DNA of 64,000 nt from Deltaproteobacteria bacterium (lineage in GTDB: Bacteria > Desulfobacterota > GWC2-55-46): positions 77,442-141,441 of the forward strand of contig JBBTBW010000006.1 in NCBI GenBank assembly GCA_038043525.1, read 5' to 3'. The notes beneath the pieces were generated by a model. That model ran no database searches. It saw only the letters and a program-made list of their open reading frames with translations, and was not told where the DNA came from. Shown here one piece after another: positions 3,460 to 44,728 of this stretch (the first letter of the stretch is position 1; every line of letters begins with the position of its first letter). The translations under genes and the position numbers were made by a program.

Positions 3460-3678
3460 TGTAGTACTCCTTTGATTTGATATTATGAATTTAACATAAA
3501 ATACGGTTCGAATGCAAATCAGGTATATAAAAGGGTCGTGTCCCATGCGGCAAGCTCTTTTTTTTTAGGCTATGATCTGATGATTTTGAACGGGTTGGCT
3601 GGCTTATGGCCATCTTACACCCACGGCGGTATGGAAGGCCTGTTAAAATGCTGGTTCAATTTTGTAAATTGAACACTT

Positions 3679-3741
3679 GGACTCCGTAATCCCTGTCAGG
3701 CCACGGACTTGGGGCTTAGGTTGCGAGCTTGAACCCGCAGA
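3679..3741. repeat. Left copy of a 63-bp imperfect direct repeat (about 90% identity) bounding an AT-rich insert
   Basis: ggactccgtaatccctgtcaggccacggacttggggcttaggttgcgagcttgaacccgcaga matches 4793..4855 with 6 mismatches. Confidence 0.8.
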
Positions 3742-3884
3742 GAATATGTCGGCTTAAATTGACTTTATCAGTCTGTTGAAGTATTTTATCCTGTAAGATC
3801 CTGCAACTTTCTATACAGAAAGAAACAGCTGTGTTTGCCTTTTTATACGGACTGTATAATTGTTGTTATGCATAACGAGGGAGC

Positions 3885-4385
3885 ATGGAAGAGTTTCTGA
3901 ATCAGATTGAGGATTCTTACAAAATTGGTCACTTCTACCTAGCATTGTTCTGTTGTCTTACTCTTCCCGACATTTGCGGGGCGATATCGTCCGACGACGG
4001 AATAGCAACTGGTCAAAAGTACAAGAACTGGTTTAATACTTACGTTGCACCAAATTATGGAGGGAATTTCAATGGAAGCAACTGCTATGCGTTCAGGTGC
4101 GCGGCTCTACACCAAGGTAGGTCTGATCACAGGGATCTTGGTTACGCGAGGATAGTTTTTCTAGTTCCAACCGCTACAAATGAATCGCTCATGCATAACA
4201 ATGTGTTAAACGACTCACTTAATCTAGACGTAGTAGCGTTTTGTCATGATATAGTCGGTGCGGTTCGAACTTGGATGCGCTGCGAAGCGTCGAAGCCGGT
4301 CTTTCAAAGAAATATGGCAACATTTTTAAAACGCCATGAAGGTGGGCTTGAACCATATATCGTTGGTACCGACGTGTTAAGTTAA
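3885..4385 (+). CDS. Hypothetical protein (166 aa) inside the AT-rich insert
   Basis: Clean ORF, low GC relative to its surroundings, and no recognisable motif other than an Rx4H dipeptide pattern (RCAALH). Confidence 0.5.
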   Translation: MEEFLNQIEDSYKIGHFYLALFCCLTLPDICGAISSDDGIATGQKYKNWFNTYVAPNYGGNFNGSNCYAFRCAALHQGRSDHRDLGYARIVFLVPTATNESLMHNNVLNDSLNLDVVAFCHDIVGAVRTWMRCEASKPVFQRNMATFLKRHEGGLEPYIVGTDVLS

Positions 4386-4399
4386 GAGGAGAAAGCTTC

Positions 4400-4732
4400 A
4401 TGCCAATTTACGAATATGAATGCCCAAGTTGCAGCGCGCGCTTTGAGGAACTACGAAAAATAGCAGAACGTGACCAATTGCTTCGGTGCACAGCCTGCGG
4501 ATCAAACGTAGTTCGCGTTTTAAGTTCTCCTAACCTTTTGTTGAATGCGAATAGCAGATCGAGCAAAACCCTAGGGTCATCAGAGTCAGTTGTGGCTGAT
4601 GTTCAGATCACGAACGGCACCTTTAAAAACTCTAACATTGGCATAAGTCTTCCAGAGGGTGCGAAGGTTACGATGAAGGGTAGCAAATTCGAGAATGTTA
4701 AGACTCCGGTGGAGTTTAGAAAGAAGAAGTAA
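4400..4732 (+). CDS. FmdB-family zinc-ribbon protein with a low-complexity tail
   Basis: The N-terminus MPIYEYECPSCSARFE...CTACGS is the canonical FmdB/CxxC-x17-CxxC zinc ribbon. A GAGGAG RBS sits upstream and the gene starts 15 nt after the preceding ORF. Confidence 0.65.
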   Translation: MPIYEYECPSCSARFEELRKIAERDQLLRCTACGSNVVRVLSSPNLLLNANSRSSKTLGSSESVVADVQITNGTFKNSNIGISLPEGAKVTMKGSKFENVKTPVEFRKKK

Positions 4733-4792
4733 TAGCGTGAACGTTGCTACGCATAACCAATCGGTTCCTTCGTCGCTTTGCTTTTTTATGCT

Positions 4793-4855
4793 GGAATCCG
4801 TAATCCCTGTCAGGCCACGGACTTGGGGTTCAGGTTGCAAGCCTAAACCCGCAGA
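4793..4855. repeat. Right copy of the 63-bp direct repeat
   Basis: ggaatccgtaatccctgtcaggccacggacttggggttcaggttgcaagcctaaacccgcaga. Confidence 0.8.
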
Positions 4856-4880
4856 CAGGTTCGCGGCCAAAGCGCGCGTA

Positions 4881-5351
4881 TCAGTCTTCGTCCGGGACCT
4901 TGCAGCCTATCATGGAGAGGAAGTTTCTCTGCTCGGCGGAGAGCCTGTGCTGGCAGACATACCAGCTGACGGTGTGGATGCGCACCCAGCCTATCTTCTC
5001 AAGCTCCGCGACCTTCATCCCAAGGACGCAATGCGCAAGCATGTCATGTAGCCAGGCAGGGCATCCGTAGAACCGCCCTTCCCTTGAGAGCCAGCCTGAG
5101 ATAAGCGTCTGGTTGTGGAGCGGCGTCTTCTTCCAGTCGAGTTCGGTTATGTGGAATACCTCGACCGTCGCGTCTATGACGTCTTCCGGGTGCTTCTCAC
5201 GCCAGAGGCTCTTGACTATGTTCAGCCAGTGCTCGCCCTTATCAAGCATCCAGAAGAAAGGCCTGGGCTGTTCATCCTTTCTGATATGGGGAGAGACAAG
5301 ATGATATATGAGTTTTTCTTCGTTGTGCATCCTGTGTCTCCGCTCCATAGC
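4881..5351 (-). CDS. Hypothetical protein
   Basis: The ORF at 4881..5459 would overlap tRNA-Phe, so the internal Met (MERRHRMHNEEKL) at 5351 was chosen as the start. No family was recognised. Confidence 0.4.
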   Translation of the reverse strand, partial: AMERRHRMHNEEKLIYHLVSPHIRKDEQPRPFFWMLDKGEHWLNIVKSLWREKHPEDVIDATVEVFHITELDWKKTPLHNQTLISGWLSREGRFYGCPAWLHDMLAHCVLGMKVAELEKIGWVRIHTVSWYVCQHRLSAEQRNFLSMIGCKVPDED

Positions 5352-5426
5352 GCCGATGAGCTTCAATGAGAACATGTATGGATAAAAAAAAGGCTCAGGC
5401 GATAGCCGGAACCTTATGAGTTTATA

Positions 5427-5502
<76 letters not shown>

Positions 5503-5935
5503 ATAAGGCATTTGAACGACTATTTTCATGTATGCGCTACTGTTTAAAACGATACGGCCTTGGCACGCGATTTATAGCGCAACTTTAGCCGACCGGTAAA
5601 GAACCATGATTTTAACAGATAGAACGGTTTAGTCAAGGGTTTTGTGGTCTTGGCGAAAGAGGTTTTATCTGGCCGTTTAGAGCCGTTTTTTTGCAGGGGC
5701 TCAGGCGGCGCTTTAGGATTACAATCTTAGGCCCGTCAGATGACGCCACAACGGCATAACAAAGCATCTCATGGCAAGTTCATCGTAAAGGAGGCTTTCC
5801 GGCGCTCTGGCGCGACCGGCCGGGGTATTGCCCGGACGCCTTTCAACTGATAAATGGACAGCGCCTTTCATATCAGCTAAAATATCGTTTTGCCCGCAAG
5901 GGCGATATTATCTTCAGATCAGGGGTTATTTTTTT

Positions 5936-18301: not shown

Positions 18302-18379
<78 letters not shown>

Positions 18380-18385
18380 AAAATA

Positions 18386-19799
18386 ATCAGGGGTTACGCA
18401 ATTGCGTAACCCCTTTTTTGTTCTCAGAGGGGTTATTAGCTAACATTTTTCTAACAATACAATCTAAAGATACGGGGTATTCTCTTTGCTGGCTCAGATT
18501 TATAACCTGAACCCGCAGTAGAGTGAAATCTATCGAAATAGGTAATGAATTGGGTAGTGACCGATTGGAGAGCAAATGAAAAAATCAGAAGAACATTTGC
18601 TGTTTTCCTTAAGGCGGGCATTGAAAGATTTTAAATCAGATCCGTATGCTGACGGACGTTATGAAAGCCCACATTCTGAAGCAGAACTTGATTTGGACGA
18701 GAATGAACTACCTCTTCCATATATGGTGTTCTTGACATTGGTTACTTTTTCGGGTTTTTCATACTGGGGACGTGAGGAAAAAGTGGCTTGGTCTATACCG
18801 ATCCTCTATAAGGACATTCCTTTTTTATTGGCCTACCGTAAATTTGGATTCGACATAACGACGCCAGCCCTTACGAATGAAACCCGGAAAGCAGCAAAGG
18901 AAATGGTAAGCAAGCTACATAAGGGCATAGTTGTTGCCGACAAACTGCTGAAACCGTTTGCTGAGGCACAAATTAGAAAAAGAAACGTCACCATTCTCAA
19001 TAAATATCATAGTTTTAACAACAGATATCGTTTCTTTCGTGAGCAAGCGGCGCAAAGCTTCTCGAAACTGTCCCAAAGAGGCGCTTTGCAGACGAATAAA
19101 ACAACCAGTACAGTTGAAATATTAAATAACATCTCTACGTTAAGTAACGAAGGTTTCTATCATGCATCAGCTATGCTGGATGCTTATTTTAGTCGCCTGG
19201 AACACGTGCTTGTTTTGTTGCTCGCCTTTACCGATTACAATAGCAAAAAGGACGACCTGGTGAGATTTATAGGCTCCTTTTGGGACGATAAATTCACACG
19301 CATATTTGATATCCAAAAAGATGCTGGGGCAAAGAAATGTTACGATCGATTATGCAATATTAAAGACAGATTCCGGAATCCCCTTTCACATGGAGGTTTT
19401 GAAAGACAGGGAGCATCTCTCAACTTCCATGTACCTGTAGTAGGGGCAATACCTGTTCACCTTTCGAGATTCAAGGATAGTATTCATTATTCCTTTCACC
19501 CGATAGACGAAACCAGCTTCGAAGAGATATGTTCTTTGTTTGACAACGCCGATAAGCTTTTAGAAAACGGAGAAATAAAATTTGGCATGAGATATATAGA
19601 TAGTGGCCTTAACGTAGCCTTTGACGAAGACATGTTAAAGGAGTATCGGCAAGCAATACGATCTGAGAAAGAGATCGAAAATTTTATACAGCATCTGTCT
19701 GATCTATCAGATATGCACACGAATTTGAACTGGTGAGAACCTAACCACTTCATGACCCAATCCTCGCAACTACAGGCTCAGACTAAGTCTTAATGCGAA
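18386..19799. mobile_element. Degenerate tRNA-Met-integrated islet of about 1.4 kb with no integrase
   Basis: Bounded by the tRNA 3'-end direct repeat, with lower GC and a single cargo ORF. Confidence 0.5.
18576..19736 (+). CDS. Hypothetical protein (386 aa) of the tRNA-Met-associated insert; possible HEPN/Abi-like
   Basis: AT-rich ORF with no recognisable family. It contains an Rx4H motif (RNPLSH) of the kind found in HEPN nucleases. Confidence 0.5.
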   Translation: MKKSEEHLLFSLRRALKDFKSDPYADGRYESPHSEAELDLDENELPLPYMVFLTLVTFSGFSYWGREEKVAWSIPILYKDIPFLLAYRKFGFDITTPALTNETRKAAKEMVSKLHKGIVVADKLLKPFAEAQIRKRNVTILNKYHSFNNRYRFFREQAAQSFSKLSQRGALQTNKTTSTVEILNNISTLSNEGFYHASAMLDAYFSRLEHVLVLLLAFTDYNSKKDDLVRFIGSFWDDKFTRIFDIQKDAGAKKCYDRLCNIKDRFRNPLSHGGFERQGASLNFHVPVVGAIPVHLSRFKDSIHYSFHPIDETSFEEICSLFDNADKLLENGEIKFGMRYIDSGLNVAFDEDMLKEYRQAIRSEKEIENFIQHLSDLSDMHTNLNW

Positions 19800-38911: not shown

Positions 38912-39727
38912 TTATTTCGACCAGGCGCAACGGAAGCCGACGTCATCGAAGAGGCCTTCCGGTGGGGCGGCGTTCCTGAACGCTGTCCGCACATATACCT
39001 GAAGGTTGTAGTGTCCCATGCCACCCCAGCCGCCGCCGCGCACGACCTTGAACTTCTCGCCGTAGTCCTTGTCGTTAAAGTCGTTTCCGGGATACTGCTT
39101 GTACCAGTCGGAGGTCCATTCCTGCGCGTTTCCGGCCATGTCAAGGAGACCGTACGGGCTCTTGCCTTCTGTGAAAGTACCTACGGGAGTCGTCCCTCCG
39201 TAGGCGCCAAGCGTGTTTACTTTTTTGTCATCGAATTCCGCGCCCCACGGGAACCTGTTGCCGTCAGTACCTCTGGCGGCCTTTTCCCATTCAAGCTCGG
39301 TCGGCAGGCGCTTGCCTTTCCACTGGCAGTAGTCCTGAGCGTCGTACCAGCTGACAAGGATCACAGGGTGGTCGGCGATCTGCGCCGGGTATCCGTTAGC
39401 CCATCCAGCCGGGAGCCTGTGGCTGGTCTTGTCTGCGAACTCCTTGTACATGGCGTTCGTCACTTCAGTCTTATCTATGTAGAACTCGCCTATCGACTCT
39501 TTCCTCTCAGGCCTCTCGTTTGCGTACCAAGGCCGCCTGTCGCCGTACTGGAGCGCCTTTGCCTCTTTATCTACCTCGTTGCTGCCTACGATAGCATCGC
39601 CCTTTGGGATCTGTATCATGTCCTGAGGCGGTTTCTTGCATCCGAACGGCAGAAGAAGTATTGCGGATAGGAAGAGTATTTTAAGGCCTGTCCTTCCAGC
39701 GATAGACTGCATTATTGAGACCTCCAT
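38912..39727 (-). CDS. FGE-sulfatase (SUMF1/EgtB/PvdO) domain lipoprotein
   Basis: WYDAQDYCQWKGKRLPTELEWEKAARG...RGGGW matches the FGE-sulfatase domain signature. N-terminal lipobox PFGC. Confidence 0.75.
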   Translation of the reverse strand: MEVSIMQSIAGRTGLKILFLSAILLLPFGCKKPPQDMIQIPKGDAIVGSNEVDKEAKALQYGDRRPWYANERPERKESIGEFYIDKTEVTNAMYKEFADKTSHRLPAGWANGYPAQIADHPVILVSWYDAQDYCQWKGKRLPTELEWEKAARGTDGNRFPWGAEFDDKKVNTLGAYGGTTPVGTFTEGKSPYGLLDMAGNAQEWTSDWYKQYPGNDFNDKDYGEKFKVVRGGGWGGMGHYNLQVYVRTAFRNAAPPEGLFDDVGFRCAWSK

Positions 39728-39923: not shown

Positions 39924-40946
39924 CTATTTTGCACCGGTAGCGCACCTGAACCCGAAGTTGTTGTTCCTGGTGTGCGGGTGAAAAAATATTCTATTGTAAG
40001 CAGGCGAGCTTATCCCGCACTTGTAGTTTGTGCAGTCGAACCATGACCCGCCTCTTAGGACCTTGAACTTCTCCCCGTAGTTTTCATCCGAGTGGGTATT
40101 GCCTGGGTAGGGCTTGAACCAGTCGTCTACCCATTCGAATGCGTTTCCGGCAAGGTCATAGACGCCGTACGGGCTTTTACCGCTCTCGAAGCTGCCTACC
40201 TGCATGGTGTCTTCGTTGCCGAACTGCGGAGTATTACCTTTGTTCTTGTCGAACTGGTCCCCCCACGGGAACGTTCTTTTGTCTGTGCCTCTGGTGGCCT
40301 TTTCCCACTCGCGTTCTGACGGGAGCCTCTTGCCCTCCCACTTGCAGAAGGCATCAGCGTCATACCAGCTCACGAATACTACGGGATGGTACTCTTTGCC
40401 TTCCGGTATCCTGCCGTCTGTCCAGTGGCCCGGAGCTTTAACCTTGCCGGCATCTACAAATGCCTTATACCGCTTGTTCGTGACCTCATACCTGTCTATA
40501 CGGAAGGCGCCGAGGCTTTCCTTGTGTTCCGGCTGGCTCTTGGGCCACCAGTCGTTAGAACCCATCGTGAACTCGCCGGCAGGCACAAGCGCCATCTCAT
40601 TAAACTGTCTGGCAGATCTCTTTTTTACAGCGCTCATGACCGGTGTCGCGCCGTCCGCGCTGCTCGCCACCATGAATCCGCCTTTAGCGTCATGAGGCGT
40701 CCTGAACCTTTCGTTTATGCTTACATAATTTTCGCTAAGCCCCGGGCCGTGGCATCCTACGCATGTCTCGTCTCTTGTATAATCCGTTGAGTAGCGTCTC
40801 TCCGGAGTGTGGCAGTCCATGCATTTGGGCTCGCCTGTGACCGGGTCGTAATCGCCGCTTTGGGCCCCTGCCTGGTGCGCATAGGCAAAAAGGCCTAAGG
40901 CCAGCGCGAATGCCGGAACAATGGCATACTTGATCTTTTTCTTCAT
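39924..40946 (-). CDS. Dihaem cytochrome c fused to an FGE-sulfatase (SUMF1-like) domain
   Basis: Signal peptide, CMDCH and CVGCH haem-binding motifs, then WYDADAFCKWEGKRLPSEREWEKATRG...RGGSW. Start placed at ATG 40946 with an AGGAAA RBS. Confidence 0.7.
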   Translation of the reverse strand: MKKKIKYAIVPAFALALGLFAYAHQAGAQSGDYDPVTGEPKCMDCHTPERRYSTDYTRDETCVGCHGPGLSENYVSINERFRTPHDAKGGFMVASSADGATPVMSAVKKRSARQFNEMALVPAGEFTMGSNDWWPKSQPEHKESLGAFRIDRYEVTNKRYKAFVDAGKVKAPGHWTDGRIPEGKEYHPVVFVSWYDADAFCKWEGKRLPSEREWEKATRGTDKRTFPWGDQFDKNKGNTPQFGNEDTMQVGSFESGKSPYGVYDLAGNAFEWVDDWFKPYPGNTHSDENYGEKFKVLRGGSWFDCTNYKCGISSPAYNRIFFHPHTRNNNFGFRCATGAK

Positions 40947-41000
40947 GATATTTTCCTGTGCTAGGGCGGCAGACTGCAAAAGTCTTACCCGCCAGGATGG

Positions 41001-42586: not shown

Positions 42587-42909
42587 TTCGATACCTCCGA
42601 TTTTAATGACTGCTGATTATAATATAAAGTCATGTAAATATAAAACTAAAAAAACAAAGGCTCAGGCTTGAAAAATCTCCGCAATCTGACGCCTGTCTAT
42701 TGTATTCGGAGACCTTTAAATGCGTATTAGTCTTAAATTAAAAATTTTTAATGGGAGGCAGGCCGCTCCAGCGTTCTAAGGCCCGAAAAAACCTCACTGT
42801 AAGTACCTATCGGCTCTGACAGATAGATAATTGAGGAAAATCTGGGCACGGTCTTTCAGCCTTTAAAAAGCAGAGATAACCCATCTTCGATCGTCTGCCG
42901 GTATAGAAA

Positions 42910-42936
42910 AGGAGGGCCGAGAATCGGCCCTCCTTT
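42910..42936. terminator. Intrinsic terminator hairpin, A-run upstream and T-run downstream (bidirectional)
   Basis: aaaa ggagggccgagaatcggccctcc tttt. Confidence 0.6.
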
Positions 42937-42944
42937 TCTGATGC

Positions 42945-43620
42945 GCTATGCGGTTTTGACGCCGCAGAGTTTTTTTTACTTGTTGCGGCAGGTTCTGCAG
43001 AGGCCTGAACCGGAGTTGCCGCTGACCCTTCTGAGGAAGAGACCGTTGGACTCTTCTTCAAGATCGAGCACCGCTACGTTCGTGTAGGTGGAATCCACCT
43101 CGTTGTACACTTGTTGTTGAAGTGCGGGTCGTGGCAGGAAGGAGCATAAAGGAGGCCGACGAGCAGGCTCGGTATCTACTCAGTGCGGGTTCAAGTTTGC
43201 AACTTGAACCCGATAATTCGTCAAGGCGCATTTTGAGATTTATGGAGCAGGTTGCAAACCTGCTCCCGCCATAGGCGTAGACAAGGTTCCGGCCTTTGAA
43301 TTTATCCTTTGTCTTGAAACAAACCCGGGCCATGGCGTAGCGAGCCTGACTGAGAGACGACGAGCAGGCGGCGGGTGTGACCCGCCCTACCGCCTGAAAG
43401 AGAGCGATGCGAGTCATACCCAAAAAGCCGCACGGAAGTGCAAAGCTAAAATCAGACCTATATTTTTTGCAAGGGGCCGTTAGAGCCAAACCAGAAGCTC
43501 ACGGTGGTGCGCAAAAAGAAAATCAGCAAATACATGACCGCTGGAATAGTTGCTTTGTCATTGGCGTCAAACAAAACCCGGACCGTGGCGTAACGAGCCG
43601 TATTAAGCTCAAGTAAGAAA
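42945..43620. repeat. Gene-free region of about 0.7 kb with internal direct repeats and multiple hairpins; candidate structured ncRNA locus
   Basis: The motif aaacaaa(a)cccgg(g/a)cc(a/g)tggcgta(g/a)cgagcc occurs twice, at 43316 and 43567. Hairpins are ggagcaggttgcaaacctgctcc, ggcgggtgtgacccgcc and the palindrome cgggttcaagtttgcaacttgaacccg. No ORF with an RBS is present. Confidence 0.5.
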
Positions 43621-43648
43621 GGGGCGGCCATTGATGGCCGCCCCTTTT
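43621..43648. terminator. Strong intrinsic terminator (GC-rich 10-bp stem plus T4)
   Basis: ggggcggccattgatggccgcccctttt. It serves the NHL gene on the minus strand and any plus-strand transcript from the upstream region. Confidence 0.7.
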
Positions 43649-43669
43649 GAGATCAAAATATAAAGTCTG

Positions 43670-44728
43670 TTACTTCTTCGCCGGTGCGGCTGATGCTGCG
43701 GCCCGTGCCTTAGACTTCTCGCCGAGGAATTCAAATACCTCGACCCTTCTGTTCCATGAGTCGACGATATATATATAGTCGTTTTTGTCTATCGCCGCGC
43801 CGGAAGGAAGCACCATCTGACCGCGCTCGTTGCCGTAGCTGGCGAACGGCAAGAGGATCTGGCCCTCATCATCGAAGATCTGTACGTTGTTGAAGGCCGA
43901 GTCCACGACATAAACATGGCCTTCGCTGTCTACAGCGATGCCTTTAGGCCGCGCGAACATCCCTGCGGCATCGCCGAACTGGCCGAAGGCCCGTATGAAC
44001 TTGCCCTCGGAATCGAATATCTGCACCCTGCCGTTCATCGTATCTACTACGAATACCCTGCCTTTGGGGTCGACCGTTATGTTAGATGGAAAGTTGAAGT
44101 GGCCTTCCTCTTTGCCGCGCTTCCCGATAGTCCTGATAGGCTTGAGCGTTTCAAGGTCGAAGACCCGTATGTCATGCGTGTGCGTGTCCGTTACGTAGAG
44201 CTTCTTGTTGATGTTGTCGGATATTATCCCCGTAGGCTGCTTGAACGGGACATCAGGTGTGATGTTGGTGATGAATTTGCCGCTCGCGTCATAGATCGCG
44301 ACCTTGTCGTCTTGCGAGTCGGTGACGAATATCCTGCCGATGTGGTCGACTGTGACGCCTATAGGCTTGTAAAGGGTCCGAACCCCGCCCATCTCCGAGA
44401 GTGTAGTGGTGGTCTTTTTCTCGGGATCGATTATGAACACGTCGCCAGCGGCCGTATCGGTAACATAGATGCGGCCCTTGTCGTCTGCATATATGCCGTT
44501 TGGCTTTTTAAGGGCTGACGAGGCCTCGGCGCCAAGTAGTATGTCTGCCGCTATGGAGGACTTTTTGAAGTCCAGGTTATCGCTCCCCCTGTAATCCCTT
44601 AGGTATTTTATGCGGGGCTCGTCAGGAGGCGCCGGCCAGTACAGGTCCGGGAGAGGAGGGGCCGCACAGCCGTATACGATAATTGGCAGAGCAACAAGCA
44701 TCAACAGCTTTTTCAGGGTGGCCTTCAT
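43670..44728 (-). CDS. NHL-repeat (six-bladed beta-propeller) lipoprotein
   Basis: Lipobox VYGC and repeated NHL units (YVTDT, FVTDS, YVVDS, YIVDS). Confidence 0.75.
   Translation of the reverse strand: MKATLKKLLMLVALPIIVYGCAAPPLPDLYWPAPPDEPRIKYLRDYRGSDNLDFKKSSIAADILLGAEASSALKKPNGIYADDKGRIYVTDTAAGDVFIIDPEKKTTTTLSEMGGVRTLYKPIGVTVDHIGRIFVTDSQDDKVAIYDASGKFITNITPDVPFKQPTGIISDNINKKLYVTDTHTHDIRVFDLETLKPIRTIGKRGKEEGHFNFPSNITVDPKGRVFVVDTMNGRVQIFDSEGKFIRAFGQFGDAAGMFARPKGIAVDSEGHVYVVDSAFNNVQIFDDEGQILLPFASYGNERGQMVLPSGAAIDKNDYIYIVDSWNRRVEVFEFLGEKSKARAAASAAPAKK

Follow-up and report, generated by a model that had tools for sequence, protein, structure and literature searches.

Most described repetitive extragenic palindromes (REPs) come from gamma- and betaproteobacteria. 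A GTAG-tagged REP is a short GC-rich imperfect palindrome (20-40 bp) defined by an unpaired GTAG tetranucleotide at one end, and the survey that uses this definition makes no mention of 'delta' or 'Geobacter' (PMC3733652). The locus analyzed here belongs to a deltaproteobacterium. It lies in a 64,000-nucleotide stretch of DNA, the window (assembly GCA_038043525.1, contig JBBTBW010000006.1, positions 77,442 to 141,441 of the forward strand), and consists of the interval 42587-43669, flanked by two minus-strand genes, one for a SurA-like peptidyl-prolyl isomerase (PPIase) and the other for an NHL beta-propeller protein. All features of the interval read on the minus strand. The original prediction took it for a gene-free region that could host structured small RNAs (sRNAs) or a degenerate repeat element. 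The whole 1.1-kb interval is very probably a decayed intergenic locus that carries a cytochrome stump, two gene terminators and repeats of the REP and bacterial interspersed mosaic element (BIME) type, and not a structured-RNA gene. This assignment draws on homologies, copy numbers, synteny and hairpin conservation, all of them observed.

The left half of the interval was assigned by blastn and tblastx of the window against the loci of relatives (L numbers below). It contains the following features, in window positions.

42976..43150, minus strand: pseudogene, the last ~56 codons left of a multihaem cytochrome c gene at its 3' end, found by tblastn with the cytochromes of L002 and L004 as queries
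42949..42966, minus strand: small hairpin, a 3'-untranslated-region (3'-UTR) feature between the cytochrome stop codon and the terminator
42905..42939, minus strand: terminator of the cytochrome c (pseudo)gene, a perfect 16-bp stem with a 3-nt loop followed by UUUUCU

Minus-strand positions 43146-42979 align to the C-terminus of the L002 cytochrome, residues 242-296 (tblastn, E = 1e-18). The stump carries two frameshifts around SCHDPHFNNK, its frame running from CS to SCHDPHFNNK and then to VYNEVDSTYTNV...GLFLRRVSGNSGSGLCRTCRNK*. The C-termini of the relatives' cytochromes read ...CSSCHDPHFNNK...GLFLRRVGGNSGSGLCRTCHNK; in the stump the final haem motif CRTCH (CXXCH) has become CRTCR (CXXCR), with loss of the haem-ligand His. 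The cytochrome promoter and the first ~240 codons (~720 nt) are absent from the locus, and no remnant of the N-terminal ~240 residues was found in the window even at E <= 1000. The intact open reading frame (ORF), signal peptide and CXXCH sites of a functional multihaem cytochrome are missing, residues ~242-296 being all that is left.

The intact gene encodes a protein with Paired_CXXCH_1 and Cytochrome_C7 domains, which is 296 aa long in L002 and 395 aa in L004. The gene lies between the NHL and SurA genes in L002 and directly upstream of SurA in L004, and it precedes SurA, complete or cut at a contig end, in L001, L003, L005, L093 and L094. Between the SurA-like and NHL genes of the window there is no intact gene, only short ORFs without homologues. 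The original prediction was therefore right to see no credible ORF here, and it overlooked the cytochrome pseudogene on the minus strand at 42976-~43150.

A GC hairpin and T-run equivalent to 42905-42939 follow the cytochrome stop codon in L001, L002, L003 and L094. L001 and L094 keep the GCGG..CCGC stem of the small hairpin, L003 has a similar one, CGG..CCG, and L002 a variant. Since both hairpins follow the stop codon as they do in the relatives, they are assigned to the 3' UTR and terminator of the cytochrome gene. The second terminator belongs to the gene at the other end of the interval.

43618..43647, minus strand: intrinsic terminator 22 nt past the stop codon of the NHL beta-propeller gene, with a 2-nt loop on a perfect 14-bp stem

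L091, whose NHL protein is 96% identical, keeps this terminator; a single compensatory change has turned a G-C pair into T-A, and the T-tail is longer on the strand of the gene. L092 (NHL 87% identical) keeps its core, GGCGGCCA...TGGCCGCC, and L002 has a hairpin and T9 right after the NHL stop codon. Directly beyond the terminator, no alignable sequence is common to L091 and the window despite the 96% NHL protein identity. An A-run and a T-run flank each of the two terminators on opposite sides. By the GC hairpin and U-run past a stop codon and by their conservation, both are predicted to be intrinsic terminators; a consensus scan did not list either hairpin because its maximal stem takes in the T-run. 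The terminators noted earlier near 42910-42936 and 43621-43648 are thus real, though the idea that they bracket an sRNA fails, as both belong to minus-strand protein genes (cytochrome and NHL).

Most of the remaining interval, ~43150-43600, is a mosaic of three interspersed multi-copy families: a GTAG-tagged REP, a doublet of palindromes with TTGCAA loops, and a ~175-nt repeat here called X, one copy of which is almost full length. A degenerate repeat element had been offered as one possibility, correctly yet in understated form. The repeats are these.

43370..43392, minus strand: GTAG-tagged REP GGTAGGGCGGGTCACACCCGCC, at the position of helix H3 in other X copies
43184..43274, strand-neutral: two TTGCAA-loop palindromes, 43186-43212 and 43245-43267, forming an inverted doublet with 32 nt between them
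43302..43528 (core 43302-43481), minus strand: near-full copy of X with an upstream module; its 3' end is motif copy 1
43554..43599, minus strand: isolated 3' module of X (GGCTCGTTACGCCACGGTCCGGGTTTTGTTTGA...), which is motif copy 2
43150..43183, minus strand: cut-off middle piece of X (GTAGATACCGAGCCTGCTCGTCGG), compared with the X consensus GCAGTAGATACAAGAACCTGCTCGTCGG; it abuts the pseudogene at the deletion junction

The 514-nt block 43147-43660 folds better than shuffled sequences on both strands (z = -5.1 and -5.6). A gain so alike on the two strands points to DNA palindromes and not to a strand-specific RNA. The GC-rich stem-loops already noted in the interval are real, and correspond to the two palindromes of the doublet and to the REP at 43370-43392. 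When the window was compared by blastn with 69 metagenome loci retrieved with a conserved piece of X (below), every match fell within 43180-43528.

The REP consists of the stem GGCGGGT/ACCCGCC with the loop CAC. Its pattern occurs once in the window and 51 times among the fetched loci, which amount to 0.52 Mb of contigs with the same aquifer as their main source, and GGTAG immediately precedes the stem in the window REP and in all 51 copies. GGTAGGGCGGGTCACACCCGCC thus reads as a textbook GTAG-tagged REP.

Six sites of the TTGCAA palindrome family lie in the window, or 12 matches when each palindrome is counted on both strands, against 1.45 expected. The arms of the doublet, 43185-43206 and 43248-43269, are 82% complementary and 41 nt apart. 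The module 43184-43274 was found again in L117 (97.5% identity), L100 (95.6%), and L137 and L145 (85%), and further single copies of the palindrome occur in the retrieved loci. With REP-type palindromes, alternating orientation, conserved spacing and a recurring module, the doublet is BIME-like. A reading of the palindromes as integron attC or tRNA-derived att sites, raised by copies near tRNA-Phe and tRNA-Met, was set aside, the family being dispersed.

Elsewhere in the window, 64-nt direct repeats that are 91% identical (3678-3741 and 4792-4855, with 3649-3675) each contain a TTGCAA-loop palindrome and surround a 1.1-kb cassette near tRNA-Phe (5427-5502). The cassette has a 166-aa ORF without Pfam match and a 110-aa FmdB-type zinc-ribbon ORF, and resembles a small islet bounded by repeat elements beside a tRNA gene. 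Another family member, GGCTCAGATTTATAACCTGAACC at 18491-18513 followed by CGCAGTAG, lies 115 nt downstream of tRNA-Met (18303-18379), between that gene and an ORF of unknown function.

Part of X is the motif of about 30 nt that the original prediction had placed at 43316 and 43567. The repetition is real: 46-nt copies at 43301-43346 and 43554-43599 share 74% identity, and in the 64 kb there are exactly two occurrences of the 25-nt core AACCCGGNCCNTGGCGTANCGAGCC, where chance predicts 0.00. The similarity of the two copies extends to ~95 nt (local alignment, z = 12). Tandem duplication of the NHL 3' end was rejected as its source, the flanks of the two ~95-nt units being unrelated (z <= 1). The motif is the most conserved, 3' module of X, so that the proposed check for copies elsewhere and for covariation led to a multi-copy element whose helices show compensatory changes.

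A profile was built from 42 copies of X aligned over the ~175-nt core (alignment A3) and run with nhmmer, giving the following matches.

Window 43481-43302, minus strand: profile positions 1-174, a full copy, E = 1.3e-41
Window 43599-43554, minus strand: profile positions 130-174, the 3' module, E = 6.4e-6
Window 43181-43125, minus strand: profile positions 93-150, a mid fragment, weak, E = 0.022
L091, just past the NHL terminator: profile positions 104-174 and 46-72, E = 3.2e-8 and 1.1e-3
Fetched loci, 0.52 Mb: 156 hits, 108 of them near-full, at E <= 1e-5

The profile has no match in L001-L005 or L092-L094. Blastn matches of the near-full window copy to many loci extend to about 43522-43528. 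The sister strain L091 carries differently arranged X fragments after the common NHL terminator, and more distant relatives are without X; repeat content is lineage-specific and dynamic.

Translations of X also turn up in protein databases. The minus strand of 43489-43061 was translated and searched against 1.8 billion representative proteins, which gave 15 entries with E down to 2e-17, often with several stretches per protein. All except one are plainly spurious ORFs in which the peptide ...FALPCSFWVWLASLS.RLAVDT..CSSALSQARYAMTRVCFK... recurs; the exception, P0133, is a genuine repeat protein and matches another part of the query. The loci of the spurious ORFs consist of intergenic arrays with a unit of 240-365 nt, lying downstream of a histidine kinase and sigma-54 response regulator in L095, between a transglycosylase gene and lexA in L165, and between ligA and a flavin reductase gene in L166 and L167. 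In L095 the array (3541-5738) contains three to four tandem X units on the same strand as the upstream histidine kinase and sigma-54-dependent regulator, with no -24 GG. The most conserved 18-mer of X, CAGGCTCGCTACGCCATG, the reverse complement of the motif core, retrieved the 69 metagenome loci mentioned above. About 45 of these are genuine copies of X, and Hainich H41 contigs, which have uniform coverage, hold nearly all of them; the other loci are chance matches in genes. No copy of the 18-mer was found in viral contigs.

A secondary structure of conserved helices is proposed for X. In a model of four helices (H1/P1/H2/H3), 92.4% of positions are paired against <= 42% in slid controls, and the helices contain 23 doubly changed (compensatory) cells where shuffles give 7.0. 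In H3, for instance, CCGAC/GTCGG has become CCGTT/AACGG, and in H1 an A-U pair is replaced by G-C. GTAG/CTAC motifs occur in the H3 loop and in the most conserved 18-mer, which hints at a tie to the system of REP-associated tyrosine transposases (RAYTs). The simplest reading of X is a repeat acting at the level of DNA or single-stranded DNA, of the kind of REP, BIME and the enterobacterial repetitive intergenic consensus (ERIC), and one that is apparently undescribed. A diversity-generating retroelement (template and variable repeats) was rejected as the source of the direct repeat in the interval, the differences between its two copies not being A-specific and a Pfam scan of nine flanking genes showing no reverse transcriptase.

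A RAYT gene occurs in the company of these repeats. ORF 110-652 of L109, a locus of a 139-kb Hainich contig, matches the NCBIfam model NF047646 for a REP-associated tyrosine transposase with 191 bits against a cutoff of 80, and also Pfam Y1_Tnp; its identity rests on these two matches. The GTAG REP GTAGGGTGGGCTCAGCCCACC lies 4 nt past its stop codon, together with an X 3' end, and a REP is present at one flank only within the 1.8 kb available. Beside the RAYT gene, at 770-1777 on the minus strand of L109, is a gene for an OLD-family ATPase/TOPRIM nuclease (AAA_15/AAA_21 and OLD-like_TOPRIM), a typical component of defence systems.

Could X be more than a dispersed repeat? Its four helices carry compensatory changes, it has GTAG/CTAC motifs, and its copies, sometimes in tandem, number more than 100. 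It might be an undescribed composite mobile unit that a RAYT processes as single-stranded DNA, or else a regulatory RNA in many copies. Such loci would then be remodelled as X is inserted and excised, possibly with cleavage at GTAG, of which a CTGA|GTAG junction at ~43180 is a hint. This reading is rather unlikely, and the chance that X is a distinct mobile or RNA element worth separate study is modest to the same degree.

The RNA version can be stated more exactly, and in that form it is unlikely. X would be a multi-copy sRNA gene or a cis-acting RNA on the minus strand, with the H1/P1/H2/H3 fold ending in GGGUUUUGUUU. The pairing and the compensatory changes in H1 and H3 fit such an RNA, as does the closing helix followed by a U-rich run, which resembles the 3' end of an sRNA. 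Roughly a third of the copies show, by eye, a GG-N10-GC resembling a sigma-54 promoter, and one array directly follows a sigma-54 activator gene. However, the GG is absent from most copies, including those beside the sigma-54 activator, and since it is not conserved across alignment A3 a sigma-54 promoter in X was rejected. The tandem array has neither a sigma-70-like promoter nor a terminator for each unit. The conserved helices have 27 G·U against 22 A·C pairs and hence no strand preference. The element is present in more than 100 copies, fragmented, mosaic and variable between sister strains, and the window copy has a REP in place of H3. An independent sRNA gene would need its own promoter and terminator, a strand signal and conservation in relatives, and the sequence to the left of the NHL terminator is not conserved even at 96% protein identity.

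Rfam 15 was equally negative, as the scan proposed earlier turned out. Over the window only two tRNAs elsewhere reach threshold. In the interval the best match reaches 25 bits, short of a gathering score of 54, most of the sub-threshold matches fall on the two terminator hairpins, and there is only noise at E <= 10. Nothing was found on the L095 X array at E <= 1, and no Rfam family matches X. The suggestion of a structured sRNA in the interval is thus not upheld.

The preferred reading, a decayed locus with repeats, also accounts for the junction at 43150. Here the X piece next to the pseudogene stops in the middle of the element (...GTAGATACCGAGCCTGCTCGTCGG|CCTCCTTTATGCTCC...) and cytochrome homology begins within about 5 nt. 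The ancestral order on the minus strand would have been NHL propeller, terminator, spacer, multihaem cytochrome c, terminator, promoter and SurA-like PPIase. First, the NHL-cytochrome spacer would have been colonised by the REP, the TTGCAA doublet and X. Second, a single deletion would have taken the 3' part of X, the cytochrome promoter and the first ~240 codons. Third, the 56-codon stump would have gained the two frameshifts and lost its haem-ligand His. The repeats were presumably spread by a REP-associated tyrosine transposase or by recombination, and, apart from possible effects on termination or mRNA stability, probably serve no dedicated function at this locus. Repeats are placed before the deletion because X is truncated mid-element at the junction. 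Two observations in relatives fit this order: the L002 spacer is also long (586 nt) with GC-rich palindromes, and the L091 spacer carries other X fragments.

Three points weigh against this picture. First, the order of events is deduced solely from the truncated X at the junction. Second, the compensatory changes in X indicate some selection on structure, so that a function as RNA or single-stranded DNA is possible. Third, the contigs with dozens of X and REP copies and the RAYT gene are assigned only tentatively to the genome of the window, the links being the shared aquifer, matching coverage (cov_6, ERZ1292625), the 97.5%-identical module and the repeat-associated breaks. No unique sequence is common to the window and the high-copy contigs, only repeats matching between them.

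A different origin of the truncation, by transposition, appears somewhat less likely than an RNA role for X. The 470-bp block would be a miniature inverted-repeat transposable element, bounded by terminal inverted repeats and a target-site duplication, whose insertion cut the cytochrome gene short. Two exact copies of a 12-nt sequence, CGACGAGCAGGC, in direct orientation at 43157 and 43358 could pass for such a duplication, the X 5' end (CCTTTGC-AAAAAA) is weakly similar to the reverse complement of the 3' end, and the copy number of the family is high. But the 12-mer is internal to the X consensus (CCTGCTCGTCG in reverse), and alignment A3 shows no convincing or consistent terminal inverted repeats at the X borders. 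Moreover, copies occur in tandem and mosaic arrays with periods varying from 255 to 365 nt, ~720 nt of the gene are missing rather than merely interrupted, and the X copy at the junction is itself truncated.

That the junction is an assembly artefact created through the repeats, the cytochrome gene being really intact, is very improbable. The locus does break many assemblies. Four short-read Logan contigs of the window organism all end at 43375, inside the REP, and the two contigs of one metagenome-assembled genome (MAG), GCA_964356895.1, end at 43258 and 43234, one inside the palindrome doublet and one just beside it, ~120-140 bases from the REP break. Relatives' contigs, too, often start inside the cytochrome gene. 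However, at least two independent assemblies of different samples, that of the window and L081, have the same junction and frameshifts. L081 crosses 43150 with 2 mismatches and no gaps in 1201 nt (99.8%), and the MAG contig L087 spans it with 100% identity. The NCBI annotation of a 256-kb MAG contig includes a 40-aa ORF, called a hypothetical protein, that is 98% identical to the stump. The joined sequences, the middle of X and codon ~242, are unrelated and share no repeat. With three contigs spanning it and no shared repeat, the junction is taken as real.

The contigs L001, L003, L005 and L094, from MAGs that are not related to each other, start within this cytochrome gene, at residues ~105, ~214 or ~243 (proteins P0121-P0126), and such starts leave many 54-90-aa 'partial' C-terminal fragments in public databases. 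The breaks within the gene suggest repeats at paralogue or strain level in the gene family.

The idea that the 44-aa ORF 42976-43110 (…GLFLRRVSGNSGSGLCRTCRNK) is a functional small protein or peptide precursor, prompted by its open frame, the good terminator after it and a Cys-rich C-terminus that initially resembled the core of a modified peptide, can be dismissed as hardly credible, for the ORF is the C-terminus of the cytochrome family with its haem-ligand His lost, its GTG start lies inside the old reading frame without a ribosome-binding site, and there are no maturation genes nearby. A ribosomally synthesized and post-translationally modified peptide was accordingly dropped as a candidate once the ORF aligned to cytochrome C-termini.

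The remaining signals of the interval lie on the SurA side, and with the flanking genes they complete the list.

42616..42644, minus strand: sigma-70-like promoter of the SurA-like PPIase gene, TTTATA-17-TATAAT, promoter scan 10/12
42737..42752, strand-neutral: perfect AT palindrome ATTAAAAATTTTTAAT, upstream of the SurA-like promoter and ~150 nt upstream of the start codon
41552-42586, minus strand: SurA-like PPIase gene, with Rotamase and SurA_N domains
43670-44728, minus strand: NHL gene, a six-bladed beta-propeller

The promoter is ~25 nt upstream of a GGAGG ribosome-binding site, and the TATATTATAAT block and the GGAGG site are kept in four of the five aligned relatives (L001, L002, L003, L094). 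The columns TTAAAA..TTTTAAT of ATTAAAAATTTTTAAT are invariant in all six sequences of alignment A4, the window and five relatives. All 16 positions are identical in L001, and the sequence around the palindrome has otherwise diverged in the relatives. ATTAAAAATTTTTAAT is probably a regulator-binding site, a putative operator.

Around the interval the genes form a cluster with two FGE-sulfatase paralogues and with cytochromes of the c7 type and of class I. Two contigs of MAG GCA_964356895.1 match the window at 100% identity, and one Hainich aquifer contig does so at 99.7%; the nearest species-level relatives are MAGs of groundwater Deltaproteobacteria with 51-59% SurA identity. The adjacent FGE-sulfatase paralogues (38912-39727 and 39924-40979) contain a 160-nt direct repeat of 71% identity at 39213-39372 and 40231-40390, an old tandem gene duplication. 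Two further pairs of direct repeats, 21656-21693/22158-22195 (CTAA.CCCTCCCGGCCTC.CCTTAAATAAGGGGAGGAG) and 21839-21885/22200-22246 (a 47-mer), flank a small ORF, which we take to resemble the DUF559 endonuclease-like family. The palindrome type CCTCCCCTT...AAGGGGAGG of this site is also found with X arrays in L095, L100 and L002.

At this locus a groundwater bacterium has recently lost one multihaem cytochrome of a conserved cluster with the order NHL / cytochrome / SurA-like / cytochrome. In annotation, the 1.1-kb gap is better labelled as a cytochrome c pseudogene with repeat elements than hunted for an RNA gene. The 40-57-aa 'hypothetical proteins' called in the interval are spurious, and so are the 150-270-aa proteins called through X arrays in other MAGs. 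The repeats would explain the fragmentation of MAGs of this lineage at this and many other loci, and repeats of the REP/RAYT type, with a longer structured companion, would extend to uncultured Deltaproteobacteria.

Compared with known systems, the stump aligns to the last two haem motifs and the conserved GLFLRRVGGNSGSGLCRTCH tail of multihaem c-type cytochromes with paired CXXCH (Paired_CXXCH_1, Cytochrome_C7). It differs from them in keeping 56 of ~300-400 codons, in a frame broken twice and in having CXXCR for the last CXXCH.

The host, an uncultured groundwater deltaproteobacterium (a Thermodesulfobacteriota-type MAG), is unlike those of most described REP systems. Otherwise the 22-nt element of the window is like the REPs of GTAG REP/RAYT systems, or REPtrons, in its GTAG head, 7-bp GC-rich stem and 3-nt loop (PMC2817692, PMC3733652, PMC3479197, PMC8266576). 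Like them it is extragenic and has dozens of near-identical copies, here in aquifer contigs, and a RAYT equivalog gene has a REP beside it, in a contig (source of L109) that may share a genome with the window. The REPs also adjoin gene ends in a terminator-like manner, as known REPs do.

The doublet resembles BIMEs and REPIN doublets in having two related inverted palindromes with a fixed 32-nt linker, as a recurring module embedded in larger mosaics. Unlike in BIMEs and REPINs, the palindromes (GGGTTCAAGTTGCAAACTTGAACCC, then GCA) have no clear GTAG head directly at the stem, and the arms, unlike those of REPINs, are not paired with each other over their whole length. X differs from ERIC/IRU, Correia/NEMIS, BOX and RUP in sequence, with no Rfam hit, and in having no terminal inverted repeats or target duplication. 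It is like these families in being a 150-250-nt, intergenic, high-copy and strongly folded element, often fragmented or in tandem, and absent from closely related lineages.

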